Shown: positions 7,102 to 36,658, counted from the first letter of the stretch. The stretch: DNA of 64,000 nt from Bacteroidota bacterium (GCA_016713445.1 JADJPB010000001.1:449000-512999); one strand, 5' to 3'. A program made the numbers and translations. Notes: a model not told the origin generated them from the sequence alone.

Positions 7102-7107
7102 AATGAA

Positions 7108-7134
7108 GAAAAAGGGGACATAGTCCTCTTTTTC
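7108..7134 (+). terminator. hairpin downstream of the TPR gene
   Basis: gaaaaagggga-catag-tcctctttttc is an imperfect 11-bp stem lying 7 nt after the stop codon. Confidence 0.45.
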
Positions 7135-7687
7135 AGTTATATACTACTTAACATAATATATAATATAAAACAAACTAATCTAAAAAGATTAGCCCGTTGT
7201 TATATTACATTTTATGATAAATAGCCACACATTAGGGATGGATATTTCGTCTTGGTTAACATAATCTTTTCGCCTCACCTCTTACCGTATTGGGGTGGTT
7301 CATCGAAAAGATTTTATGTTAAGTTTTTTGTAGATTTGTAAATAGTGGAAAAAAAAGGCAAGTAGCCCTTAAGAGCCTAAGCCAAAACTACTTTAGATAG
7401 ACGCGAACTAGTACTTAACTCTAGAAAAGATTCTATTCTGAAACTTCACCTCATTAAATGCTTTTAGAATAGCGGAATCACATCTAAGATATTCTCCTGA
7501 CGTTGCATCAGCCATAAATTCCGTTAGATGACCAGTTGACCTTCAGTGTCTTGAACATTCGTAACCACTTCGGTTTTGGGGGCAACTTGAAAATAAATCA
7601 GCGCACAACCTAAGCTATGTTAAGTCATAAAATCGTACATTATAGAACAGATATTAAGTTAACTGCTTAATAAGGGGTGTTCGAATT

Positions 7688-8010
7688 AGGCAGTTCGATC
7701 GAGGATTTTTTAAACCTGCCTGCAGCAGGCAGGCGCAACGATCGTAACGTTCAGCTTAGGCAGTTCGATCGAGGATTCTTTAAACGCAACGATCGCAACG
7801 TTCAGCTTAGGCAGTTCGATCGAGGATTCTTTAAACGTAACGATCGCAACGTTCAGCTAGGCAGTTCGATCGAGGATTCTTTAAACGTAACGATCGCAAC
7901 GTTCAAGGCAGTTCGATCGAGGATTCTTTAAACGCAACGATCGCAACGTTCAGCTTCAGGCAGTTCGATCGAGGATTCTTTAAACGTAACGATCGCAACG
8001 TTCAGCAACG
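7688..8010. repeat. tandem direct repeat, six copies of a ~47-53-bp unit (aggcagttcgatcgaggattctttaaacgYaacgatcgYaacgttcagctt)
   Basis: Read directly: copies start near 7688, 7758, 7809, 7859, 7906 and 7958. Copy 1 carries an extra 19-nt palindrome at 7715-7733. There are no unique spacers. Confidence 0.9.
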
Positions 8011-8165
8011 TTCGCAGAGGTTTTTCATATGATCTTATCTAACATCTAATCGCGATGACTCGCGACTAACCTCAAGTGTCCTCGTATGTTCTCAAGTGGC
8101 TCTAGTGTTAAAATCCGCTTCTCTAATCGAAGGACAATAAAAGACCTATCAATTCTGAATTCTTA

Positions 8166-8230
8166 TCCCGATAGACTTCGGCGAGAGCTCAGTCGAACGC
8201 TATCGGGACTGAATCCGATAGCTATCGGAT
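8166..8230. repeat. two adjacent palindromic hairpins (tcccgatag..ctatcggga, and the perfect 18-nt atccgatagctatcggat)
   Basis: Read directly. They are flanked on both sides by aattctN heptad words (8151-8165 and 8231-8272). Confidence 0.8.
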
Positions 8231-8270
8231 CTTAATTCTTAATTCTTAATTCCTAATTCTTAATTCTGAA

Positions 8271-8666
8271 TTAACCTTCCGCTGCCATCGGCATCAACTT
8301 CGCTTTTCGAGTCTTTTTATTATACTGCTTTGTGATAATCCTTACCTGATTTTCAACATCGAACTCCACGCCAAAATCATAGCAAAACCGTTGCGTATGA
8401 TTCGTCAGAACCATCTCTTCTGTAAAGAACTGCCAATCGTAGCCATGATAAATCAGTTCGTCACGGTTAAATACGGTTTCTTTTCCTTTAGACAGTTCTG
8501 CCAAGATAAACCGGTTCTTCCGAAGCTTATGGTTCACATGTCGGATTAAGGCATTTCGATAGCCATTAAACTTATTGTGGTGCGCGTTCCGACACATATC
8601 GGAACAAAACTTCTTGTCGGATCTACCTGTAATAAGGTCTCCGCATTCATTACATTTTTTTGTCAT
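8271..8666 (-). CDS. hypothetical protein with N-terminal 4-Cys zinc ribbon
   Basis: 131-aa ORF. The N-terminus CNECGDLITGRSDKKFCSDMCRNAHHN has CxxC..CxxxC. The rest has no recognisable motif. Confidence 0.6.
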   Translation of the reverse strand: MTKKCNECGDLITGRSDKKFCSDMCRNAHHNKFNGYRNALIRHVNHKLRKNRFILAELSKGKETVFNRDELIYHGYDWQFFTEEMVLTNHTQRFCYDFGVEFDVENQVRIITKQYNKKTRKAKLMPMAAEG

Positions 8667-9222
8667 TATAGAGCTATTTAAAAGTTAATATGCTTAGCAA
8701 ATGCTGTCTCTGGGTGTTTGAAAAATTTCCCAAGAATGAAGAACGAAGTGCTAAAGTAATACGGATTTAATTTTTTCCAAATTTCAACCAAGTCAAAAGC
8801 AATACTTTTTGTGTTAAATTACTAAATAGTAGATAGTTAAATGATTAAACTTAAGTGGTTTTAAACATTTGCAAATGGAATTTTAGTTTCTGATTAAGGC
8901 TTTTCCTGAATACTCAAATTACAGTTTAAACGCTGCGGTAGCAACGTCCCGAAACTTCGGGAAGTAACCGTCGCAGCGGTTTTTTATTGATCATTCTGTT
9001 TAAATCTTTCAAAAAAAACTAGCGGCTTGAAGCTAGAAGCTTGCAGCCACCCTATAGCGTTCGACAAGCACTATTTACAAAAAATCCCCTTCGTACCAAT
9101 TTGCAAACACTTTTAGTCGACTATAAATGTTTATTTACCGACTAATTGAAACCCCCTACTCCATCTTTGCATCGTCGACACCGCCATGGCCTGGCAACTA
9201 ACTATAAAACCAAAAGAAAAAA

Positions 9223-9584
9223 ATGAACTCATTAAAAAACAAAGTCAACTTGATTGGCAACCTCGGGTTCAATCCCGAAATCAAAATGTTGGACAGCGGC
9301 AAGAAACACGCTAAAGTGACCATCGCCACCAACGAATCGTACCGCAACGCCAAAGGCGAACGCATAACCGATACCCAATGGCATAATTTGGTAGCGTTCG
9401 GAAAGACGGCTGAAATTATGGAGCGCTTCACCAAAGTGGGAAGCAAGATCGCCCTCGAGGGCAAGCTGGTGAGCAGAAGCTACACCGACAAACAAGGACA
9501 AAAAAATACATCACGGAAGTGCAGGTAAACGAAATCCTGGTCCTAAGCAACTTCAACGACGAAGAATCCGAAGTGGAGAACTAA
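9223..9584 (+). pseudogene. ssb: single-stranded DNA-binding protein, frameshifted in an A run (about 9500-9506)
   Basis: An OB-fold SSB pattern is present (NKVNLIGNLG..PE.., TQWHNLVAFGKTAE, GSKIALEGKLVSRSYTDKQGQK). The adjacent frame continues KYITEVQVNEILVLSNFNDEESEVEN*. Confidence 0.85.
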
Positions 9585-9608
9585 ACCCTTGCTTTGCAGA
9601 TGAAAAAA

Positions 9609-9636
9609 CCGCCCACTTCGTGTGGCGGTTTTTTTG
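9609..9636 (+). terminator. rho-independent terminator after ssb
   Basis: The hairpin ccgcccac-ttcg-tgtggcgg is followed by a run of about 7 T. Confidence 0.65.
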
Positions 9637-9853
9637 TGAAATTATGTTCGGTTGGAGCATAGTGGGAATTGCAAATTGGTGAGTTGGTGAATTAGGCAAA
9701 GCCGCGACAAAATTTTGCTTCCGCTGCTACCGCTGCAAAACTTTGCGGTCGCTGCGTTTAAGTTCGGTAATTATTATTGAACCGAAACACTAATTACAAA
9801 TTAAACTTTTTAAATGTTACCTAATTAGCTAACTTTGTAAAAATCATTTTACC

Positions 9854-10159
9854 ATGAAAACAAAGAATCCTAACCTCACTTCGTTCACGCAACATTTAGA
9901 TTCCCAATATGGAAAAAGAGGAACCAAAAAACGCGAGCAATATGAGCAAGAATTTGAAGCTTTCAAATTAGGCGTCATGCTCCAAGACTTAAGAAAGGAA
10001 ATAGGTCTCACACAAGAGCAATTAGCTCAAAAATGTGGCACTACAAAAACGTATATCTCGCGCATCGAAAACGACGCGAGCGATATTCGTCTCACTACTC
10101 TCATGCGTATTGTAAGCGAAGGACTAGGCGGTAGATTGCGGTTTTGGGTGGAGAAATAG
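9854..10159 (+). CDS. XRE-family HTH protein, HigA-like antitoxin paralogue with no adjacent toxin gene
   Basis: The HTH reads GLTQEQLAQKCGTTKTYISRIENDASDIRLTTLMRIV. The architecture matches ORF 12615-12920. Confidence 0.8.
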   Translation: MKTKNPNLTSFTQHLDSQYGKRGTKKREQYEQEFEAFKLGVMLQDLRKEIGLTQEQLAQKCGTTKTYISRIENDASDIRLTTLMRIVSEGLGGRLRFWVEK

Positions 10160-10243
10160 GATAAAATAATAAGTGTGTTTCAATAGAGCGACAAATATTT
10201 CTTAAATTCATCCATATTTTCAAATAATCACCTCCCTTTTCAT

Positions 10244-11548
10244 TTATTTCAAATTCAATAAAGTTTTCCCAATACTATTTTTTAACTCCGTCGACACCCC
10301 CAAATCTGTCGCAAATTTCTTCCATTGATTCACCGTATCATTGATCTCTTCAACAATGCTTGCCGCTTTTTTACATTTGATGGATGCACCAAGGAGGAGT
10401 AGATCTTCTAGGGTAATATCTTTTCGTTTGTTATTTATGCTTAATGAATGCTGACTCACCCATGCACTGCCTGGACGATAGGCATGGCACATATCATAGG
10501 CGGGTGCCAACTCCCATTTCCCTTCTTTCTTTAATCGGAAAGCAAAATTTTTGGTGTGGTCATCGCAGTTTCGAGCAAGTACATTAAACACCATTCTTCT
10601 GAACATTTGTTCCGTATCAGCATACGTTAATTTTAGTTCCCGCATGGTTTGAAATAATTGCTCGTAGCTAAAGCTGTTTATTAAATTAAAATCGAAATGT
10701 GTGAGTCCACAAAAAGTTTGAATATGATGTTTCGTTTCACTTCCTTCTCGATCAAATCTTTTGGTCATAAAATGGGCTCTTCCATTTTCTTCTAAGAGTC
10801 GTGAAGGCATCATGTTGATTCCGCACGCTAATGCCATTTGGTTATACGCCATTTCTACCCTGCCATAACCCTTGCTGCTGCCCAACTGCACATCGCTTAC
10901 TCCATCAAATTTGATGAGCCAATGCTCAAATCCTTGTGGAGCCTTGGTTTGCCCCGACTTCACTTCGCCCGTTTTTTCATTGAAGGCAATTACGGCTTTT
11001 GGTCGGGCACCACATGCCGAAGTACCAATTTTTAAGATCTCCAACATGGCTTTTTCTTCCTCTTGATGAAGTTGAGTCACGAAGTTTTCTTTTTGACTTA
11101 AAATTTTTTGAGCGATATCGATCAGTCGACTTAACTCCAGCGAAAATGTATGTTTGCTTTCTTTGATGGAAGCCGGCTCAAATTCCAGTGCGCCCATCCC
11201 CCTACTCCCAATGAAACAAAGCATTTCTACGGGATTCATACTTTCGGGGGCTCTACCCTGTTGCGACAGCCACAAATTGATAAGTTGATTTCCGTATTTA
11301 TCGGGGAGCACATCCGCCAATAATCCCGGCAGTCCTTTAAAAGTATCGGTTGTCGAATTTTTATTTTTGCGCAACTCCGGAAAAGAAAAAATATTTTTAG
11401 GCGCATCGATGGGCATTTTCAGCGGCGACAAATCCCAATTCAATTTTTTAAAAGCAACATCATATTCAAAACTCGCAGATCCTGTTTTCTCATCCCAGAT
11501 GACCGCGCCCACCACTTCGTCCCAAATCTTTACAAAGGCCGTATTCAT
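10244..11548 (-). CDS. hipA: type II toxin-antitoxin system HipA-family kinase toxin
   Basis: 434 aa. It has a HipA N-terminal coupling region and a catalytic-loop-like CDDHTKNFAF. Its start overlaps the upstream HTH gene by 4 bp. Confidence 0.9.
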   Translation of the reverse strand: MNTAFVKIWDEVVGAVIWDEKTGSASFEYDVAFKKLNWDLSPLKMPIDAPKNIFSFPELRKNKNSTTDTFKGLPGLLADVLPDKYGNQLINLWLSQQGRAPESMNPVEMLCFIGSRGMGALEFEPASIKESKHTFSLELSRLIDIAQKILSQKENFVTQLHQEEEKAMLEILKIGTSACGARPKAVIAFNEKTGEVKSGQTKAPQGFEHWLIKFDGVSDVQLGSSKGYGRVEMAYNQMALACGINMMPSRLLEENGRAHFMTKRFDREGSETKHHIQTFCGLTHFDFNLINSFSYEQLFQTMRELKLTYADTEQMFRRMVFNVLARNCDDHTKNFAFRLKKEGKWELAPAYDMCHAYRPGSAWVSQHSLSINNKRKDITLEDLLLLGASIKCKKAASIVEEINDTVNQWKKFATDLGVSTELKNSIGKTLLNLK

Positions 11549-11889
11549 GCGTTGGGATTTGCTTTAGGGGATGCCTTTTGATTTTTATTGCTGGCTCGTT
11601 GCCGTTTATATTTTTCCATTTTGGCGAGGGCCATCGGACTAATGATGGGTTCAATAGTGAAGATGTCCAATACGGTGAGCTCATCCAATACCCTTAACAC
11701 TTGAATTAAGGTGGCTACCGTAACGGTTTCACCGCGCTCCAACAAACTCAAGGTAGACCTGCTTATACCCGCCTCAAACGCCAAAATTGCCTGCGTTTTA
11801 TTTTGCTCCATCCGCTTCGTTTTAACAAAAGCACCAATATGCGAAGCCAAGGCTTGATCACTCATTGCATTCCAATTTTTGTATGACAT
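11545..11889 (-). CDS. hipB: HipB-like XRE-family HTH antitoxin
   Basis: The HTH reads NKTQAILAFEAGISRSTLSLLERGE. It lies immediately upstream of hipA and is translationally coupled to it. Confidence 0.8.
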   Translation of the reverse strand: MSYKNWNAMSDQALASHIGAFVKTKRMEQNKTQAILAFEAGISRSTLSLLERGETVTVATLIQVLRVLDELTVLDIFTIEPIISPMALAKMEKYKRQRASNKNQKASPKANPNA

Positions 11890-12122
11890 ATCATGTATAA
11901 ATTAAAATTATAACTATTAGTGAATGCTAACTCATGCAAATTTAAGCTAATTCGATAAAATTTCCAAATTTTATACCCACAACCTGCGAAGTGCACCCTA
12001 AAATTTGTAATTTATCTGAATATTTTTTAAATATATGTATGAATTAACATTCATTAAGTTCAATAAATTAAATTAGTGAATTATATATCATACGTAAAAA
12101 TGGATAATTTGTTGCATTGGGA

Positions 12123-12178: not shown

Positions 12179-12246
12179 CTTATTCAAATTTTGCGAAAGT
12201 CTACCAATATTAATTTGGATTTTGTTAACTTTATAGTTAACTTTGT

Positions 12247-12609
12247 GTGGTGAAGACTGAAAGGCAAATCATTTTCTATGAACATTATTTTACCAAGTTT
12301 TATTTGGCGCAAACAAATAAAGTTCAAGAGAAAATAGAATTTGTTTTTAAAATATTACGGACCGTTGAAAGGGTTCCCATAAAGTTCTTGGATCATATGA
12401 CTGGTACGGACGGACTTTATGAGATTCGAGTGGAGGTGGCAAGTGATATTTACAGAATATTTTGTTGTTTCGACAAAGGCAATTTGGTAATATTGTTTAA
12501 TGGGTTTCAAAAGAAAACGCAAAAGATGCCCAAGCGAGAATTGGAAACTGCAGAAAAACTTAAACCTGCCTGCTGCAGGCAGGCGCGAATATTTCGCAAG
12601 CAAAATTAA
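12247..12609 (+). CDS. RelE/ParE-superfamily toxin (Gp49/HigB-like); the C-terminus is altered by a palindromic insert
   Basis: 120 aa with ..GLYEIRVEVASDIYRIFCCFDKGNLVILFNGFQKKTQKMPKRELETAEKLK.., typical of Gp49-like toxins. An HTH antitoxin gene follows 5 nt downstream. The last 15 codons run through the hairpin element at 12565-12583. Confidence 0.75.
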   Translation: MVKTERQIIFYEHYFTKFYLAQTNKVQEKIEFVFKILRTVERVPIKFLDHMTGTDGLYEIRVEVASDIYRIFCCFDKGNLVILFNGFQKKTQKMPKRELETAEKLKPACCRQARIFRKQN

Positions 12610-12614
12610 AAGTA

Positions 12615-12920
12615 ATGAAAAAGAAAAATATAAAAGAGGCCAAATCGTTCGATGAACTTTTGGAAATCAAATACGGTATCATTGGCACCCCAAAGCGTGA
12701 CAAATTCGAAGAGAAGGCACAATACTTTGTCATCAGCGTAATGTTGAAGGAAGCCAGAAAAGAAGCTAATATGACGCAAGAAGAATTGGCAGACAAAGTA
12801 GGAACAAAGAAGAGTTATATTTCCAGATTGGAAAACGGAAAATGTGACATTCAACTATCAACACTGTATCGAATCTTTGAATTTGGACTTGGTCGCCCTA
12901 TTAACTTATTAATCGGGTAA
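12615..12920 (+). CDS. HigA-like XRE-family HTH antitoxin
   Basis: The HTH reads NMTQEELADKVGTKKSYISRLENGKCDIQLSTLYRIF. It sits directly downstream of the Gp49-like toxin. Confidence 0.85.
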   Translation: MKKKNIKEAKSFDELLEIKYGIIGTPKRDKFEEKAQYFVISVMLKEARKEANMTQEELADKVGTKKSYISRLENGKCDIQLSTLYRIFEFGLGRPINLLIG

Positions 12921-12964
12921 TCCCCCGAAGTTGAGCTTATCACGATCGGGGCTGCTACTCTCCC

Positions 12965-13064
12965 CCAAAAGCGTGCGTAGCTCTGCTTTTGGATGCTTGC
13001 CCAAAAGCGTGCGAAGCTCTGCTTCTGGATACTTGCCCAGAAGCGTGCGTAGCTCTGCTTCTGG
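12965..13064. repeat. three phased 36-nt units, each an 8-bp-stem hairpin (ccaaaagc-12 nt-gcttttgg)
   Basis: Read directly, with units starting at 12965, 13001 and 13037. Three ORFs in the track (12851-13078, 12909-13130, 12931-13176) are just translations of this repeat. Confidence 0.8.
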
Positions 13065-13342: not shown

Positions 13343-14239
13343 TTATTTGTTATTGTTAAATCGTATTCGATGCCTATCCAAATACTCATTGTTAAATTCA
13401 CTTAGATTTCTGATTTTTTCTTTGCCTGTTACTCCAATCTTTTCAAAAGCGCTTGTTTCGATGGTGTCTGAAAGGATGATCTTGCCAGAATTTTCAAATG
13501 TTATTAAGTGACGATCAAATAAGGCATCGTAAGTCGGTGAAAGTAAAATTCCATTGTGAACATCTAATTTTTCATTGTCATTTGAAGTAGCCCAAGGCTC
13601 AATATGAGAAGCTATTAAAACATTAAGTTTATCAAATCCTGTAACTGCACATTTATACTCCCATCTATGAATTATACGTTTGCGATATGCACCTTGACCT
13701 ACACGAGAAGTAACTAAGCCTTTTCTTTCTGTTTCATTTGGAGGTATTATTTTTAATGCTTCAAAAGGATCTGCAGCATATTTTGCATTGTGATCAAATA
13801 AAGTAGCTTGATAAGGAACATGAGCACCTAATCTTTTAAAGAAAAACTTAATTCCGATTCTTGTATTCCCAGTAGTATCATGCGTTTCAAAATAATCTGC
13901 GTCAAAGAATTCTACTTCACTGATAAATCGTACAAAACCTTTTGACTCACTTTCAAATAAAAAAACTCTTTTGCCATTTATTAGATGATCTCTCAAGGCC
14001 AAATTGCCTCTAGAAAATTCCATATCGCCAGATTGCCCTTCGCCTGTATAGGAAAACACGTTGGGATTGTCCCAGCCATCTTTATATCCATGTTGATGTC
14101 CTGACTTTCCTGAAAAAATAAATATGTATGGAAAATTAGCAGAAGGTGCAATACCACTTTGCCAACTACCACCAAACAAAGCGTGTATATCCGCTCTACG
14201 GTTGTAAATCTGGTTAGGGATGAATGGTAGTTTTTGCAT
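13343..14239 (-). CDS. putative modification-dependent (type IV) restriction endonuclease: SRA/PUA-like N-terminal domain fused to an HNH nuclease
   Basis: The N-terminus (IYNRRADIHALFGG..GI....PYIFIFSG..GYKDGWDNPNVFSYTGEGQSGDMEFSRGNLALRDH) resembles bacterial SRA/YDG domains. The C-terminus (GQGAYRKRIIHRWEYKCAVTG......ASHIEPW......DVHNGILLSPTYDALFDRHLITF) resembles the HNH_2 family. It starts 10 bp after the hsdR stop. Confidence 0.7.
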   Translation of the reverse strand: MQKLPFIPNQIYNRRADIHALFGGSWQSGIAPSANFPYIFIFSGKSGHQHGYKDGWDNPNVFSYTGEGQSGDMEFSRGNLALRDHLINGKRVFLFESESKGFVRFISEVEFFDADYFETHDTTGNTRIGIKFFFKRLGAHVPYQATLFDHNAKYAADPFEALKIIPPNETERKGLVTSRVGQGAYRKRIIHRWEYKCAVTGFDKLNVLIASHIEPWATSNDNEKLDVHNGILLSPTYDALFDRHLITFENSGKIILSDTIETSAFEKIGVTGKEKIRNLSEFNNEYLDRHRIRFNNNK

Positions 14240-14249
14240 TAATTAATTC

Positions 14250-17243
14250 CTAATAGTATTCTTTTATGTAGTCGTATGCTCTATTAAATAAATCCTCGTC
14301 CTTAATTTGATATTTTGTCCAAAGCACTTTTCGCAATTCTCTTTTTACTTCTCGTTCACCAACGGTCGAGTTTTGCCAACCGTCAAAGCGAACTACTCTT
14401 ACAATTTCGTCAATGTCGTTTACGATGCGTTCTACAATAGCTGGTGTTGTGTCGGTTTTTAATTCAAGAAACAATTCTGTCAATGCGGCTTTTGCATTTT
14501 TCTGTTCTAACTCGGGTTCTGATACTTTCTCAGCTTGTAATGTTTCTTTGGCTAACTGACATAGCTCTTTAATAAATTCTATTGAATTGATTAGTCCTTT
14601 TTCTGCTTTATCACGAATGGCTTCAAGTCTTTCGCTTAGGCGTTTGAATGTTGGATTGTTACCGTGTTTGTTTAAACGACTGATTAGAATTTTCAAAACT
14701 TTCTCTGCTTGTCTTGGGTCTTTCTTATTCATCAAATCTTCAATCACTTCTGCATCCAAAATCATTTCTTCCATGTCGTGATTGATGCCCGAAACATGAA
14801 TGTGCTCATGTATGAGTGCTGTTGTCTGTGCACCTAAAGCATGCCATAATAATCTGCCGTTGTCATCTGATGCTGGTTTTACCGAAGTGTAAACCTGCGA
14901 CAACCATTTGTAATCATTTTCAAATTGATTTAAAACTTGGTCGGGTGAAAGTGCTTCCCACAACTTTGTCAGGCTGCTGAAATCTTTTGCAAAGGCATCA
15001 CGTTTTTCGTTGGTATTGATACAGTCTTGTGCTTTTGATAATCCTTCAAAACCTGAAAGAGTTCTGTCAACTCCAACAAAATGATTCAAGCATTTTTCCA
15101 TCCATTCAGGCAGTTTGTCTTTCAATTCCTGCAAGTTGGTAATCACTTGTTTTACACTTTCTTCATCAAATGCCAGGGCTTTTGCAGTATCGTCAAAAAC
15201 ACCAAAGTAATCTACTATTCTGCCGAATGTCTTATTTGGGAATAAACGATTGGTTCTGCAAATGGCTTGTAAAAGGGTATGGTCTTTCAACGATTTGTCC
15301 AAATACATGGTTTGCAAAATCGGAGCATCAAAACCAGTTAAGAGTTTTGCCGTAACAATCAGAAATTTCAAAGGCGAATCTGCATCGTTGTATTTCTCAA
15401 CAACTTTTTCTTGCTTGTCTTTGTCCATTGCATACTTCTGTTTGAAATCAAAATCATCATTGGCTGATGAACTGATAACAACTTCGCTGGCTTCGGGATT
15501 TATCAAGAGGTCTAATGCTTCTTTGTATTGAACACAGGCCTCACGATCTGGCGTTACAATCATGGCTTTTAAACCTTCGGGTTCAACGTGTGCTTTAAAA
15601 TGCTCTACAATGTCGGCAACAATGGTTTTTACCCGTTCAGGTGATTTTAAAAACACCGCCATGTTAGCGGCTTTCTGACTTAGTTTGTTTCTATCTTCTT
15701 CACTCAGGTCGTTTGCCATTTCTTTAAAAGCAATGTCCAAACTTTCTTTGTCAATGTGATAATTCGGCAAACGTGGTTCAAAGTGCAAAGGCAAAGTTGC
15801 ATTATCTCTGATACTTTCCTGAAAAGTGTAACGGCTCATATAACCGCCACTGTCTTGCTCTGCTCCAAAAGCCCAAAATGTATTTTTGTCTGCTTTATTG
15901 ATTGGTGTTCCTGTTAAACCAAACAGAAAAGCATTGGGTAAAGCGTTTCGCATTTTGCGTCCCAAATCGCCTTCCTGCGTTCTGTGTGCTTCATCCACCA
16001 TTACAATAATGTTTTCCCGCTTGTTCATGTCGGGATAAGCATCTTTGAATTTGTGCACCATCGTAATGATGATTTTCCGTGTGTCCTGTTCTAATAGCTT
16101 GTGCAATTCTTTTATGCTATCGGTGGTAATCATGTTGGGCACTTCGGCTGTGTTGAAAGTGGCTGTGATTTGAGTATCTAAATCCACTCTATCTACCACA
16201 ATCATTACTGTTGGATTATTTAAGTCTTGTTGCTTTCTTAATTTCTGAGCAGCAAACAACATCAACAGCGATTTTCCCGAACCTTGAAAATGCCAAATCA
16301 ATCCTTTTTTTATTTTGCCTTCTCTTACCCGTTCTACAATGGCATTTGCTCCTTCGTATTGCTGATAGCGGCAAACAACTTTTATCTTTTTCTTCTTGCT
16401 GTTGGTGGCGTAAACTGTGTAATACTGTAAAATATCTAACAGCGTTGAAGGTTTGAGTAAATGCGTTAATTGTTTGGCTACATCTTGCAAACCGATGAAA
16501 TGACTTAACTCGTCCTTTTCATCTTCTAAACGCCAAGGTGCCCAAAACTCTAATGGAGTTCTTACGCCACCAATAAATATTTCTTTACCTTCTGTTGCAA
16601 ATGAAAATACATTAGGAACAAACAATTGCGGAACTGCATTTTCATACACCACATTAATATCATGTGCACCGTCAAACCAAGTAACGGCAGGTCGCACAGG
16701 GGTTTTGGCTTCTCCAACCACCAAAGGAATTCCATTGACGAACATTACAATATCGGGAATTTTGGTTTCTCTGGCTCGTAGCTTAAATTGATTGCAAAGC
16801 ACAAAACTGTTGTTTTTCAATATTTCAAAATCAATCAGGCGAATGGCAACATGTTCGTTGTTTTTGCCAATTGGAAGCGTTACTTCATTGCGAAGCCATT
16901 TGGCAAATTCTTCATTAGCTCTTACCAAACCAACATTGTTTACCGCAATGAGAATGGCTCTGAGTTTATGAATGACTTCTTCGGCTTTGTCAGGATTGGC
17001 AGCAATATCAGGATTGAGGCGGCAAAGGGCTTCTTTCAATTCCTTTTCTACAAACACTTCGGTAATATCCCGTTGCAGCAAATCGGCTTGTATGTATTTC
17101 CATTTTACGCCACCTTCATATTCTACGGCATCTTCTTTTACTACATTGCCTTGCACAGCATTTAAGTTCACCCCTGTGAGTTGGTGAATGATGAAATGCT
17201 CTACGGTATTTTGCTCGTTAAATGCCATGAGAAGTTTATACAA
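14250..17243 (-). CDS. hsdR: type I restriction enzyme R subunit
   Basis: 997 aa with helicase motifs GSGKS, VDEAHRTQEG and LTGTP, an HsdR N-terminal nuclease region and a C-terminal helical domain. Confidence 0.95.
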   Translation of the reverse strand: MYKLLMAFNEQNTVEHFIIHQLTGVNLNAVQGNVVKEDAVEYEGGVKWKYIQADLLQRDITEVFVEKELKEALCRLNPDIAANPDKAEEVIHKLRAILIAVNNVGLVRANEEFAKWLRNEVTLPIGKNNEHVAIRLIDFEILKNNSFVLCNQFKLRARETKIPDIVMFVNGIPLVVGEAKTPVRPAVTWFDGAHDINVVYENAVPQLFVPNVFSFATEGKEIFIGGVRTPLEFWAPWRLEDEKDELSHFIGLQDVAKQLTHLLKPSTLLDILQYYTVYATNSKKKKIKVVCRYQQYEGANAIVERVREGKIKKGLIWHFQGSGKSLLMLFAAQKLRKQQDLNNPTVMIVVDRVDLDTQITATFNTAEVPNMITTDSIKELHKLLEQDTRKIIITMVHKFKDAYPDMNKRENIIVMVDEAHRTQEGDLGRKMRNALPNAFLFGLTGTPINKADKNTFWAFGAEQDSGGYMSRYTFQESIRDNATLPLHFEPRLPNYHIDKESLDIAFKEMANDLSEEDRNKLSQKAANMAVFLKSPERVKTIVADIVEHFKAHVEPEGLKAMIVTPDREACVQYKEALDLLINPEASEVVISSSANDDFDFKQKYAMDKDKQEKVVEKYNDADSPLKFLIVTAKLLTGFDAPILQTMYLDKSLKDHTLLQAICRTNRLFPNKTFGRIVDYFGVFDDTAKALAFDEESVKQVITNLQELKDKLPEWMEKCLNHFVGVDRTLSGFEGLSKAQDCINTNEKRDAFAKDFSSLTKLWEALSPDQVLNQFENDYKWLSQVYTSVKPASDDNGRLLWHALGAQTTALIHEHIHVSGINHDMEEMILDAEVIEDLMNKKDPRQAEKVLKILISRLNKHGNNPTFKRLSERLEAIRDKAEKGLINSIEFIKELCQLAKETLQAEKVSEPELEQKNAKAALTELFLELKTDTTPAIVERIVNDIDEIVRVVRFDGWQNSTVGEREVKRELRKVLWTKYQIKDEDLFNRAYDYIKEYY

Positions 17244-18285
17244 AATTCAATTTGCTACCATAATTATTAAGATGCTCCATGGCAATATTTATGTATTCTT
17301 TGGTAATTAGAATTTTCTTTCTCTGATTCCATTCCTGAATTTTTTCAAATAGTTGGTCTTCTGTTAACTTCGGATTTTCACTTAAAAGGAAATGGGCCGA
17401 AGAAAGAATTTCCAGTGATAGTGTTGTTTCAAAACCATCAATAATATTAAATATGCTTTCCAATCTTTGTTTCTGGTCTGAATTCAAATTGGCGTTTACA
17501 TATTTTTCTACTTCTTCATATTTTTCATAATTCAATTGCAACGGTTCAAATGCTCTTGCCTTCATTTGTTCCATTCCAGTTAGATATTTTCCATTCAAGG
17601 CATATAAAACTTTTTCTATAGCCTGTGCATAAGGCCCATATTTATATGGAACAAATTGCAATCGCATTGGCTCACCACTTTTTTGCAAAAAATAGGCAAG
17701 TTTGTTTGCGGAAAAAATGGTTGCCACTTCGCCTAATTTTTCATATTTGAATAAAGCATAAAGCAGCATTGCTCTTGCAGCTGTCAAGCCAACTTCTTTC
17801 TTGACTTCTTCTTTCTGGAGAATTTCTTTTACCGCATCATTGGGCTCATAAATTTGAATAGCCACATTCGATAACTGACCAAGATATTTATCCATCATTG
17901 GTTTTACCTTTTCCCATTTTAAACCTCCATTACCACAGCCTAATGGCGGAATAGCTATGCTTCTAATTTTATATTCCTCAATCACTATTGCCAAATCTTT
18001 TAGCCCATCTTCAATATAACTGTATTGTGATTTCTTAAACCATTCTGTTTTAGTCGGAAAATTGATTATGAGTTTCTCTCCATTTAGAGTGTTCTCCTTA
18101 ACCACTAACATTTTACCTACTTGCATTTCGCCCTTTTTACAAGCATCTGCATAAATTTTAAAATTCATTGGAAAACGCTCTTTGAACTGCAATGCAATTC
18201 CCTTACCCATTACACCAACGGTGTTTACCGTGTTTACCAAAGCTTCCGTTTCAGCTTCAAGCATATTTCCAGTTATATATTTCAT
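17236..18285 (-). CDS. darG: DarG-like macrodomain antitoxin (ADP-ribosylglycohydrolase)
   Basis: An N-terminal macrodomain pattern is present (ALVNTVNTVGVMGKGIALQFKERFP ... IAIPPLGCGNGGL) with a ~190-aa C-terminal domain. It overlaps darT by 4 bp and hsdR by 8 bp. Confidence 0.85.
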   Translation of the reverse strand: MKYITGNMLEAETEALVNTVNTVGVMGKGIALQFKERFPMNFKIYADACKKGEMQVGKMLVVKENTLNGEKLIINFPTKTEWFKKSQYSYIEDGLKDLAIVIEEYKIRSIAIPPLGCGNGGLKWEKVKPMMDKYLGQLSNVAIQIYEPNDAVKEILQKEEVKKEVGLTAARAMLLYALFKYEKLGEVATIFSANKLAYFLQKSGEPMRLQFVPYKYGPYAQAIEKVLYALNGKYLTGMEQMKARAFEPLQLNYEKYEEVEKYVNANLNSDQKQRLESIFNIIDGFETTLSLEILSSAHFLLSENPKLTEDQLFEKIQEWNQRKKILITKEYINIAMEHLNNYGSKLNFV

Positions 18286-18923
18286 AAGAAGTAATATTCT
18301 GTTTTTATTTTAATGTCAATATTCAAGTCAAGGTCTTTAAGTATTGCTTCAACTTGTTCTTTTATTGTTTGGTTAAGGACTGCAATACCATTTATATAAT
18401 CAACCGGCACATGGTCTTTTACCAAAAACTCTGCATGTTTTTTTCTTACCCTGTCTTCATCACCATCAGCATTTTCATCTCTAAAATCAGTTGTATTAAT
18501 TGAACGCCAATCTAAATGTTCAAGGTGTTTGATGTTGTTTGAGAATTTTGAAATCTTTTTTGCTGCATTTCCATCAGTAAAGCACCATTGAAAATCCTCA
18601 ATCGCTAATTCACTCAATTTACAACAAAGGTAGATAATGTCCTTTTGAGGACTGGCAGGCACACCATGACCTGTTACAATATTGTAAAGCATCGGTGTTC
18701 GGACAGAAAAGTAAAAAGGAACATAGTCATTTACCACAGTCTCAGGATAACATTTTACAATTCTGGTATCACGTTGGGTGATAATTTCCTTACTACCAAT
18801 GGTTACAAATCCTTTATCCTTCTTGCCTGCATTTTTACAATACAAGCCATCCCGAAGAATGTATTCCAGATTTTGAATTGGAACAATTCGAAAGACCCAT
18901 ATTTTATCTATATCCATTGGCAT
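18282..18923 (-). CDS. darT: DarT-like (DUF4433) DNA ADP-ribosyltransferase toxin
   Basis: 213 aa with ..WVFRIVPIQNLEYILRDGL.., YVPFYFSVRTPMLY and RKKHAEFLVKDHVP, characteristic of DUF4433/DarT. A macrodomain gene follows directly. Confidence 0.85.
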   Translation of the reverse strand: MPMDIDKIWVFRIVPIQNLEYILRDGLYCKNAGKKDKGFVTIGSKEIITQRDTRIVKCYPETVVNDYVPFYFSVRTPMLYNIVTGHGVPASPQKDIIYLCCKLSELAIEDFQWCFTDGNAAKKISKFSNNIKHLEHLDWRSINTTDFRDENADGDEDRVRKKHAEFLVKDHVPVDYINGIAVLNQTIKEQVEAILKDLDLNIDIKIKTEYYFL

Positions 18924-18946
18924 GTTGAAAACGCAATTTTACGCAT

Positions 18947-20114
18947 TTATCCTAAAATTTCATTTAATAATTTCTGCTTCAAATTCTTCAAAGTTGTTTT
19001 CTGTTGTTTGAGTTGTTTAACTGTTGTGTCCAACTGCTGCAATACTTCCAAAATGGTTGCCTGTATTTTTAAATCTGGAATGGAAACTTCTAATTCTGCT
19101 AAATCTTTCCATTTGGTTCTTGGTGAAAGTGAACCTGCCGAAGTGCTAACTGCATGTTGAATAAAAGCATCTGCCGAAATGTAATACGGCAATAACCCTT
19201 GCAACATCTTTTTTGCTTTGGCTCTTATTACCAAAATATCACCTGAACAAATTCCATCAAAATCAGCAACAGCAACCTTCTTTAAGTAGGCTCTACGTTT
19301 ACCAAACAACACATCGCCTTTCACAAACCGTTTTGAAAAGGTTGTGCCGTTTGCAATTTCGCCCCAACCTTGTAACTGAAAATTATCTGCTTCAATAAAT
19401 TCTAAGCCAACAAATCGTTCTACTTCTTTTTCGTGTTCGGGATATTTTTTATCACATTCTGCTATTTCGCAAAAAGTGGTTGCTGTGCAATTCTTGCTGC
19501 TAAATAAATTTCCAAACTCAGGTTCTTTGCTTAACAAGCCATTCATCATTGTTTTTTGCAGCGCTTTCAAATTCTTCTCCTGCACATCTACCTGCTCCAT
19601 TGCAGTTTCTATAGATTGAAAAAGTGCGGTTATTTGTTTTTGCTCTTCGAGTGGGGGAAGGGGGATTTGAATTTTGGCAAGTATAGTTCTTGTAATCCCT
19701 TTAAAAGTTGTCCCTGCTGATAAGGAATGTATTAATTTTTGATTTCCCTTTAGCCAAAAAGCCAAGTACCAATTATCAATTTTTTTCGGGATTACAAACA
19801 AAATTTTCTAATGATTGAGATGTAGCAATTTCTTTACCTGCTATTGCCACCTCACCAACTGTTGCCCTAGTCGTAAATAAAATAGTTCCAATTGGAAGCA
19901 TTTTTGCACTTGACTTTTGAATTGCCTCATCAGTTAGTTTTTCATTAGTCTCTGTAATTATTCTAATTCTATCTTTCGGAATTTCTGTTGGCCCAATCCA
20001 AAGATTATTTCCTTTAAAATAATCCGGTTTAGAACGACTAGGTGTTCCACCGCCAACAATTGAAGCAACATTTTCAATCTTTACTTTATTCCATATTTCT
20101 TTTCTCAACTTCAT
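18947..20114 (-). pseudogene. hsdS: type I R-M specificity subunit, frameshifted in a T/A run (19780-19786)
   Basis: Fragments 19776-20114 and 18947-19801 each hold a target-recognition-domain-like segment and conserved helical spacers (LPPLEEQKQI; LKQQKTTLKNLKQKLLNEIL). Removing one A joins them as ..NPEK|IDNWYLAFWL.. Confidence 0.85.
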
Positions 20115-21588
20115 ACTTCTATTCCTATATTTTTGAGTTGAGAAAAAAGGTTTTCTAACGATGTATTGACTTCTTTTTGTCCTGTTTTTATTTGTGAAAT
20201 TAAATCTTCCGTATTGTGTTCACTGTTTATTGCAGTTTGCTTAACATATAATTGAATACTTAGATTGCCTTTATTTTCCAGCACTTCTTTGTTGTTCACC
20301 ACTTTTGAAAATCCTTCATCACCTTTAAATTTCCAATAAGCATCGCTTATCTTTTTTATATGCTGTGGTTCAAGCCAGGCATTAGTGCGCTCTATATGTA
20401 ATTCCTCTTTGGCATCAATAAAAATAATTTTACCTTTTCTTTCTTTTGGCTTCTTCATTCGGCATACCAGCAAACAACTTTCCATGCTGCTGTTGTAAAA
20501 CAGGTTTTTGCCTAAGCCAATTACGGCATCTACATAATCTTCTTCAATCATGCGTTTGCGTATTTCGGCTTCGCTGTCTCTAAACAAAACGCCATGCGGC
20601 CAAAGCACTACACAACGGCCAGTTTCAGGGTTCAGGCTTTTCATAATGTGCTGCTGAAAAGCATAGTCGGCACAACCCTGTGGCGGTGTTCCCCAAATGT
20701 TGCGTCCAAAAGGGTCGTTCATCCATTTGCTTTGGCTCCACTTTTTTTACGCTGTATGGAGGGTTAGCCATTATCACATCAAAGTTCTTAAGTTCGTCAT
20801 TCTCTAATATCTGCGGGCTGTCTAAGGTGTCTCCCTGCACAATCAAAAACTCATCTACATTGTGCATAAACATATTGATACGAGCAATGGCAGAGGTAAT
20901 GAGGTTAAGTTCCTGTCCGTAAAGTTTTAATGTTCTGTATTCTTTGCCTTGTTCCTTTAGGTGCAAAGCGGCACTCAGCAAAATACCACCACTACCGCAG
21001 GTAGGGTCGTAAATGCTTTCACTGCTTTTAGGGTCGGTAATTTGTGTCATCAGTTTCACCACTGTTCGGTTGGTGTAAAACTCGGCTGCGGTATGTCCAC
21101 TGTCGTCTGCAAATTTCTTAATTAGGTATTCGTAACCTTCGCCCATAATGTCATGAGGCACATTGGCCACTGTTAAGTCCATTTTACTGAAATGCTCGAT
21201 TAAGTCAAGCATTTTCTCATCGCTCATGCGGCGTTTGTTCGTCCATTGCGCATCGCCAAAGACATCATGAAGCATTTCAAAGTTGGCCTTTTCAATACCT
21301 TGTAAGTGCTTTTTGTAAAAAGGCTCCGACATCAATGGTCCTTTTTCTCACATCTTCCCAATGGCAACCATTTGGAATTTGAAACCGGTGATTTTCATTT
21401 AATTCCGCATAGCTTTTATCCCCAGCAGAGTCAATAAAAGCCTGCTCAAATTCTTCATCCCAAACATCACTGATGCGCTTAAAAAATAGCAAAGGGAAAA
21501 TATATTGTTTAAAGTCAGCCGCATCAATCATTCCACGTAGGATATTGGCTGCTCCCCAGAGATAATCTTCTAATTGTTTTTGTGTCAT
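20111..21588 (-). pseudogene. hsdM: type I R-M N6-adenine DNA methyltransferase subunit, with two frameshifts (about 21300-21335 and 20742-20748)
   Basis: There are three overlapping fragments. The N-terminus is HsdM_N-like (LWGAANILRG), motif I is DPTCGSGG and motif IV is NPPY. The third fragment continues after an A7 run as ..SVKK|WSQSKWMNDPFGRN.. Confidence 0.9.
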
Positions 21589-21814
21589 TTTCTATTCTTA
21601 AAATTCGTTTGTAAAGTTAGTTTTATATTACTGAAAATGGTCATTGGTGCGTTGGCAAAAAATGGCTCTTTTGGTTTTGCGAAGGGTTGGCTTGTGTTTT
21701 AGGCACACCAAAAGATCAAAATTTATGTAGGCGTTTCTTCGTAAACATTTTTAAGTATCATATCGCTTCAATAAAATTATCAAATACTGGTTTAAAATAT
21801 TTTCTACAAAACAA

Positions 21815-23251
21815 TTAGAATTTTTTACTGGTCTCAATCGAGTTTTTCAAACGAGCAAGTACAATATCCCCACATTTTTTTGCAATTTCTTTCATTTCTA
21901 CATTGGTTATAGTTTGATTATATAATTTTTCAGTCAAAATCGTTTGCTCACTATCAATCTTCACAGTATATTTAAAATCTAGCAAATTGAATACTAAATC
22001 TTCATACAAGTCAAAAAGTTTTGTATTATTAAATTTATAACCTCGCCATATAAATGTTACAAATATTTTATTAATTTCTTTTTCCTGAATTGGTGTGTTA
22101 GGTTTACCACCTGAATATATTATACCAATAATATTTCCAAAATTTTGAACATCATTGGAGTCAAAAAATATTTGTTTTTCAACATATCTTAAATCTCTGC
22201 CTGGTGATTTTAGTGTGGTAGTCTCATAAGCATTATCTACTTTATATAATTTCTCATTTTCAATAAAGAGTTCATTTAATTTTCCTAATTTTTCTTCGAT
22301 TAAACTAAGCAATTCAATTAAAGTTTCCGTGAATAATAATTGTAGAACTTTACGTGATTTTTTTATTTGAACAAGAGAATTATTTTGACTACCTCTTTTA
22401 ATTAAAGAAATTTCTTTATCAAAATCTCCATCATCGTCTATGCTTTCTCCTTTAGCAGCGAGGATACTTTTTTCAAAAGACCAATTTAACTGTCCTATAA
22501 TATATTGGACAAAGTATTCAATATCTCCGACATCAGCTTTGTTTAAAGCAAACAAATAGTCCTTTTTTTCAGAATCTTTAATAATACAAGGGGGATAATC
22601 GTGTTTTAGTAGCACATAATTCATTAATAATCTCGCAACTCTACCATTCCCATCATCAAATGGATGAATCCGAACAAATTTGTAATGTAACATGGCAGCT
22701 AACCATACCTTATGAGTTTCGTTACTTCTTGAATGAGTCAAATAAAATTTAATTAACTCATGCATTTCTGATGGAGTATCTTCAGGGCTAGTATAGTTAA
22801 AGATTTCACCATTTTCTAACTGAACTGAATTAGGAAATTTTTTGTATTCCCCAGGTGCAATTTCCCTTCTTGTAGGCTGTCCATCTGATGTAATTGCATT
22901 TTTCCAAAAAGGACGTACTAAAATTAATTTATTTAATTCTCTAATAAAAGCTTCACTTAATTCTCTTTCCTTATCTGAAGCTGTTTCAACTACCATCATA
23001 ATTGCAACGTTATGAGCCTTCATTTCTTCGATTTCTCTTCCCGTGAAATCACCTGACACTTTATCAAAAATGAGAAGAAGTTCAGTTTGACTATATGTAA
23101 GTGTATTCCCTTCCATATGATTAGAATTATAATTCCAATCTAAAAGAAATTTTTTCCAAAGCCTTTTCTCATCTTGCTCTTTTAATGGCTTAAGAGTATT
23201 TAATTCAGACTTTAACAAGTCTAATTTTTGAAATAATTCATTTAAATCCAT
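21815..23251 (-). CDS. Fic-domain protein (class II, with N-terminal inhibitory motif) and an unassigned ~200-aa C-terminal domain
   Basis: The Fic motif is HPFDDGNGRVARLL. The upstream SNHMEG fits the (S/T)xxxE(G/N) inhibitory helix. Residues from about 270 to 478 have no motif I recognise. Confidence 0.9.
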   Translation of the reverse strand: MDLNELFQKLDLLKSELNTLKPLKEQDEKRLWKKFLLDWNYNSNHMEGNTLTYSQTELLLIFDKVSGDFTGREIEEMKAHNVAIMMVVETASDKERELSEAFIRELNKLILVRPFWKNAITSDGQPTRREIAPGEYKKFPNSVQLENGEIFNYTSPEDTPSEMHELIKFYLTHSRSNETHKVWLAAMLHYKFVRIHPFDDGNGRVARLLMNYVLLKHDYPPCIIKDSEKKDYLFALNKADVGDIEYFVQYIIGQLNWSFEKSILAAKGESIDDDGDFDKEISLIKRGSQNNSLVQIKKSRKVLQLLFTETLIELLSLIEEKLGKLNELFIENEKLYKVDNAYETTTLKSPGRDLRYVEKQIFFDSNDVQNFGNIIGIIYSGGKPNTPIQEKEINKIFVTFIWRGYKFNNTKLFDLYEDLVFNLLDFKYTVKIDSEQTILTEKLYNQTITNVEMKEIAKKCGDIVLARLKNSIETSKKF

Positions 23252-25234: not shown

Positions 25235-26361
25235 TTAACGTGGCTTCGCTGCGTTTAAAAATCCTTGTATCACGGAAGCTGCATTAAACGACGCACCTTC
25301 TCCTCCTAAACGCATTTTCAATTCCTCAAACGATGCTAACATTTTGTCACGCTCATCCGTTTCTAAAATCTTTAACAACTCACTTTTCACTTGCTTCGGA
25401 TTGAGGTCGGCTTGGATAAGCTCCTTTACGATTTCACGATCCATCACTAAATTGACCAAGGATATGAACTTGACTTTGATGAGTTGTCGAGCAATCCAAT
25501 AGCTCACTTTGTTGGCTTTGTAGCACACTACCTCGGGTACACCGAAGATAGCAGTTTCTAAAGTCGCCGTCCCACTAGTAACTAAAGCACCTGAAGAAGC
25601 ACTTAAGATAGCATACGTTTCTCCTTGAATATGAGTGATATTTGATCTATTGTCAAGGTGGGATGTGTAAGCATCCATGACTTGCGAAGGAGCCATCGCT
25701 AAGAGGAAGTGGTAGTCATGCATGTCCCGCGTCGCCTCGAGCATGATGGGCAACATGGTGTCGATTTCTTGCTTCCGACTCCCCGGTAAGAGGGCAATGA
25801 GCTTTTTGTTTTCGGGGATGCCGTGTTTCTTTTTCCAATTATCGTCAATCCATTTCGAGTGCCAATCTCATCTAACAAAGGATGTCCCACAAAGTCGACC
25901 TCCATGCCCCACTTTTGGTAAAAGTCTTTTTCAAAAGGGAGAATGACCATCATTTTGTCGATGTCGCGCTTGATTTTATGGATCCGCGATTCTTTCCAAG
26001 CCCATATTTGCGGACTGATGTAATAGATGGTTTTGATGCCTTGTTCACGGGCAAACTCCGCTATGCGTAGATTGAAGCCTGGATAATCGATAAAAATCAT
26101 CGCATCGGGCTTCCATGCTAAAATATCTTCCTTGCAAAACTTGATGTTCTTGAGGATGGTTCGCAGGTTGGCAATCACCTCGATAAATCCCATAAAAGCA
26201 AGGTCTCTATAATGCTTCACCAACTCACCGCCTTGCTCCTGCATCAGATCGCCACCCCAACATCTAAAGGAAGCCTGCTTATCGTTTTCACGAATGGCTT
26301 TCATCAAATTGCTCGCGTGCAAATCGCCCGATGCTTCCCCGGCTATGACATAGTACTTCAT
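25235..26361 (-). pseudogene. lpxB: lipid-A-disaccharide synthase, one frameshift (about 25699-25756)
   Basis: The N-terminus is MKYYVIAGEASGDLHASNLM. The C-terminal fragment has ..SGTATLETAIFGVPEVVCYK... The two overlapping fragments sum to about 375 aa. Confidence 0.9.
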
Positions 26362-26666
26362 GCAATAATTTTAAAGTACATCACGATGAATGCATAAATG
26401 AAGGTAGCGCCAATGACGCCCTTCGCCGCTCTGTCAATTTCCTTGATGTAGAAAAGATAGAACAAGCCTAAGTTTAAGATCACACCCAGACTCAACACCG
26501 CAATGGCTTTGTTGGATTTTGTCACGTGATCGATGAACCCATCAAAGGACATATAATTGAAAAATAGCAGGTAATAAATATAGAAACCTAGAATGGGCAG
26601 GAGCATGCCTGGCACAAATCCCGATTTGAATTCGTCTTTGAGTTTGTAAGATGGTTTTTTCGTCAT
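26358..26666 (-). CDS. small integral membrane protein, function unknown
   Basis: 102 aa with three hydrophobic segments. It overlaps the lpxB start by 4 bp. Confidence 0.6.
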   Translation of the reverse strand: MTKKPSYKLKDEFKSGFVPGMLLPILGFYIYYLLFFNYMSFDGFIDHVTKSNKAIAVLSLGVILNLGLFYLFYIKEIDRAAKGVIGATFIYAFIVMYFKIIA

Positions 26667-36519: not shown

Positions 36520-36658
36520 TGGTCTAAGTTATGAAATTAATTTTTATTGAACATTTTCTAGTGGATATTCATTCGTTTTTTATTTTTATGCGAAACAATT
36601 GGGATGAACGGATGTCATCCCGAACACTCTAGACAACGTATTTAATCTTTAAAAAATT

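Follow-up and report, generated by a model that had tools for sequence, protein, structure and literature searches.

We describe a gene array in a 64,000-nt stretch of DNA from a Bacteroidota bacterium (GCA_016713445.1, JADJPB010000001.1:449000-512999), to which we refer as the window. The array lies at 13343-21588. All its genes are encoded by the minus strand and follow one another as hsdM, hsdS, darT, darG, hsdR and a gene for a predicted SRA-HNH nuclease. It joins a type I restriction-modification (R-M) system, a toxin-antitoxin (TA) pair placed between hsdS and hsdR, and a putative modification-dependent nuclease after hsdR. The strand and the gene order given in a first-pass annotation of this DNA are confirmed by the open reading frames (ORFs) and by profile matches. 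The same annotation spoke of six genes. Their identities and order stand, but the gene count does not hold for the assembly, which contains nine ORFs: three for hsdM, two for hsdS, and one each for darT, darG, hsdR and SRA-HNH. A profile check of the six proteins upheld every family call, and the catalytic residues are kept in DarT, DarG and the HNH domain.

The array and its products

The backbone consists of the three type I genes. The gene hsdM, for a predicted N6-adenine methyltransferase, occupies 20111-21588 and was delimited by Pfam, alignment to orthologues and reconstruction of the frame. Its pieces (ORFs 21292-21588, 20625-21335 and 20111-20722) match Pfam HsdM_N (1.5e-17) and N6_Mtase (6.9e-44 and 2.3e-38), they cover contiguous N6_Mtase profile positions, 3-152 and then 153-309, and both motifs, DPTCGSGG and NPPYS, are present. 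The specificity gene hsdS (18947-20114) is assembled as ORFs 19776-20114 and 18947-19801, the first piece matching Methylase_S positions 4-93 and the second positions 90-157 plus a second domain; there are two target-recognition domains, and PADLOC assigns Specificity_I with 4e-77. The restriction and translocase subunit gene hsdR (14250-17228, 992 aa) has an intact frame. Its product matches HSDR_N (3.2e-29), SWI2_SNF2 (6.4e-75) and a T1R_D3-like domain in Pfam, as well as TIGR00348 (9.5e-167, 556 bits against a cut-off of 285), and the nuclease motif GEAK and the DEAH motif can be read in the translation.

The frames of hsdM and hsdS are interrupted in the assembly, by two +1 frameshifts in the former and one in the latter. 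We aligned the DNA of hsdM to four intact orthologues of 491-493 aa (loci L001, L004, L007 and L014), relative to which the window gene carries exactly two extra bases. One is inserted within 21296-21302, near 21302, in the context CTTACAAGG, outside any long homopolymer. The other falls on a run of seven A on the coding strand (A7, 20742-20748), just past the NPPYS motif. L001 has A6 at this place, and in L004, L007 and L014 the run is broken (AAGCGA, AAGAAA). Removal of the two bases gives a 491-aa HsdM with DPTCGSGG and NPPYS. In hsdS a single-base deletion test places the frameshift in the interval 19776-19809, where removing any one base restores a 388-aa HsdS. The interval includes a second A7 run (19780-19786), and the frameshift is compatible either with this run or with a T-rich stretch just upstream.

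The genes nested between hsdS and hsdR are darT (18282-18923, 213 aa), for a putative DarT2-type ADP-ribosyltransferase toxin acting on single-stranded DNA (ssDNA), and darG (17236-18285, 349 aa), for its antitoxin. DarT matches its Pfam family (PF14487, 2.5e-56), the PADLOC model (1.4e-64) and the NCBIfam equivalog toxin_DarT (NF048013, 211 bits against a cut-off of 150). In alignment its E165 coincides with the catalytic Glu that was mutated to Ala in the inactive crystallised proteins 7OMV (Thermus) and 7YK3 (M. tuberculosis), and 20 homologues all share the KKHxEFLV motif, R51, Y71 and further positions. DarG matches Macro (6.2e-23), the PADLOC model (4.9e-121) and the NCBIfam equivalog antitoxin_DarG (411 bits against 250). 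Residues 2-150 align with the Thermus DarG macrodomain (PDB 5M31, 2.5e-48), with the PTK lysine and the glycine-rich loops GVMGKG and GCGNGG kept, and the C-terminal residues 192-338 resemble the domain through which 7YK3_B binds DarT (5e-14). Because the N-terminus of DarG is a macrodomain, not a NADAR domain, and the catalytic residues are conserved, we assign the pair by homology to the DarTG2 type, with a macrodomain antitoxin and a predicted thymidine-directed toxin.

The last gene (13343-14239) encodes what we call, for its SRA half by way of a structural model, an SRA-HNH modification-dependent (type IV / IIM-like) nuclease of 298 aa. The first-pass annotation expected profile matches to both domains. 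The HNH part of this expectation is borne out (HNH_2, 2.5e-13; the HNH domain against VcaM4I, 1.3e-24), but Pfam SAD_SRA stays below threshold, at 16 bits against 30.7, and it is the predicted fold that backs the SRA call. An AlphaFold2 model, computed from an alignment of 23 homologues and compared with the PDB by Foldseek, has a mean pLDDT of 83, with about 76-94 in the N-terminal domain and poor values only in the linker 143-175. Foldseek gives a probability of 1.0 for VcaM4I (HNH half), ScoMcrA, TagI, AspBHI, MspJI, SUVH5 and the SRA domains of UHRF1/2; the SRA half matches the isolated SBD-SRA fragment of ScoMcrA (5zmn) with 1.5e-8 and the SRA domain of plant SUVH5 with a TM score of 0.63 on the target. 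The precomputed Pfam assignment of the protein is PF26348 (SRA_ScoMcrA) plus PF13391 (HNH_2), and the SRA signature GY-DGWD...YTGEGQ-GDM is present in the N-terminal domain. H212, N229, D238 and D242 are invariant in the 23 homologues. One histidine of VcaM4I, in a helix (DHLFD), is replaced by alanine in the window enzyme (YDALFD); because nearly all close homologues have Ala as well, we read it as a feature of the clade and not as a lesion.

The genes are tightly packed, the largest gap inside the array being 23 nt, at the hsdS/darT junction, which the earlier note had left out. The 4-bp overlap (ATGA) of hsdM and hsdS, the 4-bp overlap of darT and darG, with the toxin gene preceding the antitoxin gene, and the 10-nt gap between hsdR and SRA-HNH had all been claimed before and can be read directly in the sequence. 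The 8-bp overlap claimed for darG and hsdR is not upheld. It requires the TTG start at 17243 chosen by the ORF finder, while the ATG at 17228 leaves a gap of 7 nt. This ATG is most likely the true start, judging from the 992-aa length shared by all orthologues and by the GenBank protein from the same contig, MBK7964244.1, one of the series MBK7964243-MBK7964249 encoded there. The 226-nt intergenic region upstream of hsdM (21589-21814) presumably holds the array's promoter.

Related loci and known systems

How often does this arrangement recur? We scanned a single genome of each species for the DarT pattern and obtained 57 loci, among them 27 Bacteroidota loci with enough flanking DNA. In four of the 27 we find the order hsdM-hsdS-(...)-darT-darG-hsdR, its hsd genes being homologues of those in the window; they are the same loci that served as hsdM orthologues. 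L001 belongs to Saprospiraceae and L004 to Chitinophagales, and HsdR identity to the window is 94% (L001), 81% (L004), 86% (L007) and 73% (L014). Some of these operons hold extra genes: L004 has KilA-N inserted between hsdS and darT, L007 has a YhcG/DUF1016 nuclease between hsdM and hsdS, and in L001 hsdR is followed by DUF2130. DarTG is not nested in an R-M system in the other 23.

In a neighbour-joining tree of DarT plus DarG, built without bootstrap, the window and the four nested loci fall within one clade of eight (five of eight nested), and no nested copy is found among the approximately 23 sequences outside it. This suggests one ancestral insertion of DarTG followed by co-inheritance, with some relatives living outside R-M systems. 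L005, which was left out of the tree for its split darT, is not nested, in spite of 84% (DarT) and 89% (DarG) identity to the window. The split is itself worth recording: darT is broken over two frames next to an intact darG in five of 37 Bacteroidota DarTG loci (L005, L023, L031, L034 and L037; at about 10001-10640 or the equivalent position). It may reflect toxin inactivation or indel errors of metagenome-assembled genomes (MAGs), and L037 is explicitly an ONT bin.

The full set of six genes is another matter. The adjacency hsdS-darTG-hsdR-SRA-HNH, which the first-pass annotation proposed to survey, is not conserved, since the SRA-HNH gene accompanies DarTG in none of these 57 loci; the six-gene set was found in the window only. 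Its components do recur in other company. The 90%-identity cluster of the window HsdR has 212 members. In operons of this cluster the genes between hsdS and hsdR differ: L149-151 have a PDDEXK_3 protein there, L152-154 (Sediminibacterium) a 138-aa protein, an AAA_15 ATPase and a 185-aa protein, and L155 has PDDEXK_3 and Bro-N genes. An EVE-NucS_C protein follows hsdR of the same cluster at about 0.8 kb in L155 (11834-12706) and L156 (3944-4915). By its domains, EVE of the PUA superfamily and NucS_C of the PD-(D/E)xK type, it is another modification-sensing nuclease architecture at the position equivalent to that of SRA-HNH.

The most telling case is a Flavobacteriales MAG, GCA_002726195.1 (L158/L159). 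It reads hsdM-hsdS-(1228 aa)-(170 aa)-AbiEii-hsdR-SRA-HNH, with an SRA-HNH protein 81% identical to that of the window, encoded 6 nt after hsdR. The hsd backbone with a trailing SRA-HNH gene thus recurs, albeit with other toxin-antitoxin or abortive-infection cargo. The 1228-aa protein (1987-5673 in L158, also in L159) has no Pfam match and lies between hsdS and an AbiEi/AbiEii-like pair; by 'guilt-by-embedding' it is a candidate for an uncharacterised defence gene. In Sediminibacterium the orthologous hsdM directly follows a Kiwa system (KwaA/KwaB, 1432-2993 in L152), which is further evidence that this hsd family sits in defence islands.

The SRA-HNH family itself is large: a 90%-clustered database gave 2117 matches, the representative clusters at 1e-30 or better number 82, and the members are often named McrA-like by their sources. 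Homologues elsewhere are found after a GIY-YIG/helicase/S24 protein, beside efflux genes and beside an integrase island, and the Flavobacteriales case is the only one among the metagenome loci examined where hsdR is directly upstream. Because the homologues occur in such unrelated contexts, we regard it as an independent mobile module, which has either landed after hsdR at least twice or been inherited there in one lineage. Homologues 80-82% identical to the window protein form a recurrent two-gene module with a NUDIX gene (125-126 aa), the two genes sharing 14 nt at the 3' end of SRA-HNH (L058, 8001-9258; L144, 10001-11261; also L059, L060 and L145-L148). One may speculate that the NUDIX protein sanitises modified dNTPs and so guards the host from self-restriction. 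The window contains no remnant of such a NUDIX gene.

Was the six-gene arrangement uncharacterised, as the first-pass annotation had it? This is half correct. The five-gene core is known from the RRDM island of EPEC E2348/69, rptR-hsdM-hsdS-darT-darG-hsdR-M48, where DarTG2 lies between hsdS and hsdR, phage protection has been shown experimentally, and the genes are under a single phage-responsive, RptR-repressed promoter (Nucleic Acids Res 2025, PMC12255303). The same work found DarTG2 nested in 12 of 54 RptR-linked type I systems and states that DarTG systems cloned alone still defend. The two islands agree in having a DarTG2 with a macrodomain DarG between hsdS and hsdR and all genes on one strand. 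They differ in host (a Proteobacterium in the one case, a member of the Bacteroidota in the other), in the trailing gene (an M48 metallopeptidase against SRA-HNH), and in the interruption of hsdM and hsdS in our assembly. They also differ at the upstream end: the EPEC island starts with RptR (79 aa), whereas 21589-21814 contains no ORF of at least 60 aa, hence no gene for an RptR-like regulator (operator repeats were not searched), and beyond it lies a Fic gene. The exact set with SRA-HNH is undescribed in the literature that we searched. As far as this literature shows, only the combination is new, that is the trailing SRA-HNH gene in a Bacteroidota host; the modules and the five-gene core were known already. 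The more general remark that DarTG is often near R-M genes agrees with a 2021 review (PMC8385414). In the structural and repair literature on DarT, hsdS and hsdR are mentioned only as strain genotypes.

Other systems resemble the array in part. In VPI-2 of V. cholerae the type IV genes TgvAB are embedded in a type I operon, so that modified and unmodified phages are both covered (J Bacteriol 2024, PMC11411939). There, as here, one cluster joins type I restriction to a modification-dependent nuclease. The nested genes of VPI-2, though, are the type IV ones (GmrSD-like, two proteins), whereas in the window it is a toxin-antitoxin pair that is nested, the type IV gene being placed after hsdR. Characterised SRA-HNH enzymes are TagI, ScoA3IV (Sco5333) and the SBD-SRA-HNH protein ScoMcrA (PMC6212794, PMC6765204, PMC7461809); they share with the window enzyme an N-terminal SRA fold and a C-terminal HNH (ββα-Me) nuclease. 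The window enzyme has only about 15% identity to the solved enzymes, and its HNH half is nearest to the EVE-HNH enzyme VcaM4I. Finally, prrC is linked to a type Ic hsd locus, and its product, a tRNA anticodon nuclease, is silenced by the R-M complex EcoprrI (PMC1484252). Both loci thus tie a suicide effector genetically to type I R-M genes, but PrrC is held by the R-M complex physically, whereas DarTG comes with an antitoxin of its own, and nothing known or seen here indicates that it depends on R-M.

Weighing the explanations

In our opinion the array is a mosaic defence island, in which three known modules, assembled on an ordinary type I R-M backbone, act in parallel and independently of each other. 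We give this reading a probability of about 0.7. The backbone hsdM-hsdS-...-hsdR has positions that are repeatedly taken by other defence genes, the slot between hsdS and hsdR being filled here by DarTG2 and the position after hsdR by the single-gene SRA-HNH. HsdM2S would methylate adenines in a bipartite site, and HsdR2M2S would cut DNA that does not carry this mark. The SRA-HNH protein would flip out and recognise 5-methyl- or 5-hydroxymethyl-cytosine and cut such DNA, and in this way cover phages that escape classical restriction by cytosine modification. DarT would ADP-ribosylate thymidines in ssDNA once DarG no longer restrains it, and so block phage replication, the restraint by DarG presumably being exerted both through hydrolysis by the macrodomain and through sequestration by the C-terminal domain. 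The earlier description of three mechanistically different layers, one based on m6A in the type I system, one depending on cytosine modification through SRA-HNH and one ADP-ribosylating DNA through DarTG2, is in this respect sound.

Several observations weigh against this reading. The biochemical activities, including the substrate specificities of DarT and SRA-HNH, are taken over from knowledge of their families. The view of the array as one transcription and translation unit is drawn from gene spacing: tight spacing is indeed compatible with co-transcription, and transcription from the region upstream of hsdM is plausible on this ground, but scans for sigma-70 promoters and intrinsic terminators gave counts equal to those in shuffled controls, and the Bacteroidota motif TTTG...TAnnTTTG was not found upstream of hsdM (one TAnnTTTG motif falls within darT). 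That DarTG is inherited together with this hsd family, over DarT identities of 61-83%, is compatible with some selective benefit of nesting beyond a neutral hotspot. Finally, hsdM and hsdS contain three frameshifts within 2.6 kb, where the rate elsewhere in the window, about one per 6-7 kb, predicts about 0.4, while hsdR, darT, darG, SRA-HNH and Fic, about 7 kb combined, contain none.

This uneven distribution would be expected if the frameshifts were real and the R-M system were decaying, with hsdM and hsdS as pseudogenes, HsdR harmless alone, and the locus kept by DarTG addiction and a useful SRA-HNH. Joint loss of M and S would, from what is known of the family, end restriction and modification together and so be non-lethal, and the hsdM insertion outside homopolymers adds to this case. 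Nevertheless we consider decay unlikely. Elsewhere in the 64 kb, conserved genes are broken by no fewer than eight further frameshifts. Consecutive ORFs in different frames match successive parts of one Pfam profile in lpxB (25235-26370), formiminotransferase-cyclodeaminase (FTCD, 51582-53152), AIM24 (36653-37377), DUF4139 (34828-35812) and a CoA_binding_3/Bac_transf sugar transferase (31747-32638); the frameshift sites of lpxB and FTCD are at 25699-25867 and 52331-52427. A gene of the AIR-synthase family (42888-43790) is broken into three or more pieces whose Pfam coverage is contiguous, and overlapping ORFs without a Pfam match continue from there to 44345. The gene lpxB is normally essential in Gram-negative bacteria. 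The frameshifts go in both directions, +1 and -1, and together these split genes point to pervasive indel errors in the assembly. The source is a MAG with a 794-kb contig, hence probably a long-read assembly, and we take its accession range to belong to a Nanopore-based set of activated-sludge MAGs. Two of the three hsd sites have an A7 run, a typical context of sequencing error, and there is no further lesion, since deletion of three single bases gives full-length HsdM and HsdS. The simplest reading is therefore that the hsd frameshifts are probably assembly indels, not biology, just as in lpxB and the other split genes, and that the R-M system is probably intact in the living organism. Might the A7 tracts instead be contingency loci that switch R-M on and off? 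Phase-variable type I systems have reportedly been seen before (PMC7383803), and two of the frameshifts do fall on the sole 7-nt homopolymers of hsdM and hsdS. Yet A7 is short for a contingency tract, runs of 7 nt occur in intact genes of the array as well, the third frameshift is outside any repeat, and the hsdM tract, being A6 in one orthologue and interrupted in three, is not a conserved repeat. We rejected phase variation on this lack of conservation and regard it as hardly credible.

The other objection concerns independence. From the placement of darTG inside the R-M genes the first-pass annotation suggested a functional link, and one can imagine a guard in the manner of PrrC. EcoprrI keeps the anticodon nuclease PrrC silent, T4 Stp activates it, and prrC presumably also stands between hsdS and hsdR. 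By analogy DarTG would be wired to the type I enzyme, held latent by the intact complex or co-regulated with it, and would fire once the complex is disabled by a phage anti-restriction protein of the Ocr, ArdA or Stp-like kind. The nested copies do form one clade that diverges roughly along with HsdR, the junctions are tight, and the entire EPEC island is under one phage-responsive promoter (PMC12255303). However, DarG has a complete neutralisation machinery of its own in its macrodomain and DarT-binding domain, most DarTG pairs (23 of the 27 informative Bacteroidota loci, including the close relative L005) are outside any type I system, and the same slot of orthologous operons accepts unrelated cargo (AbiE, PDDEXK_3, AAA_15, Bro-N). 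Stand-alone DarTG, moreover, defends when cloned alone (PMC12255303). For the first three of these reasons we disfavour functional coupling, do not uphold the link suggested from placement, and find a guard improbable. We are just as sceptical of a wider version, in which, within this Bacteroidota hsd family, hsdM-hsdS-[cargo]-hsdR-[modification-dependent nuclease] is a selected, co-regulated platform instead of a passive hotspot, with the nested cargo as a back-up and SRA-HNH closing the escape through modified cytosine. If it were true, the platform would be a three-tier system with PrrC-like logic, in which nested DarTG or AbiE fires upon anti-restriction.

Surroundings and meaning

The array is part of a wider island with a G+C content of 0.28-0.39, against 0.40-0.45 in the flanking housekeeping DNA. 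The next gene upstream of hsdM, likewise on the minus strand, encodes a Fic-family protein of 478 aa (21815-23251; PADLOC PDC-S04 4e-37, SoFic 1e-23) with a local G+C of 0.28-0.32; it is not conserved beside the related hsd operons. On the other side the array is flanked by two TA pairs, a Gp49/HigB-like toxin with an HTH_3 antitoxin (12241-12920, plus strand) and a HipA protein (HipA_C, 3.8e-52) with an HTH_3 partner (10244-11901, minus strand). These two pairs and the array form a low-G+C defence and TA island, which in its wider extent also includes Fic. Between SRA-HNH and the HigA-like gene there is a 36-nt tandem repeat (12964-13064, 2.8 copies, 92% matches), each unit of which holds an inverted repeat, CCAGAAGC...GCTTCTGG. 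Intergenic tandem arrays are numerous in this genome, further examples being those at 7734-8006 (51 nt, 5.4 copies) and 42562-42723 (17 nt, 9.5 copies). A stretch of about 3 kb (7102-10243) has no ORF above 140 codons and gave no Rfam match and no tRNA. It includes tandem repeats as well as several 7- to 8-nt runs of A/T and could be a degraded or a poorly assembled region. A tRNA scan and Rfam at gathering thresholds found nothing in the whole window and so pointed to no tRNA integration site.

The locus reveals no new mechanism. The window also serves as a caution: frameshifts in long-contig MAGs should not be taken for pseudogenes or for phase variation without a check of the reads. What the locus does is to extend R-M-nested DarTG2, so far characterised in E. 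coli, to the Bacteroidota. Beyond this, the locus and its relatives show that one widely transferred family of type I operons is a carrier of defence cargo. The cargo is exchanged at set places, namely the hsdM-hsdS interval, the hsdS-hsdR interval and the site after hsdR, and these positions are useful for the discovery of defence genes by 'guilt-by-embedding'.

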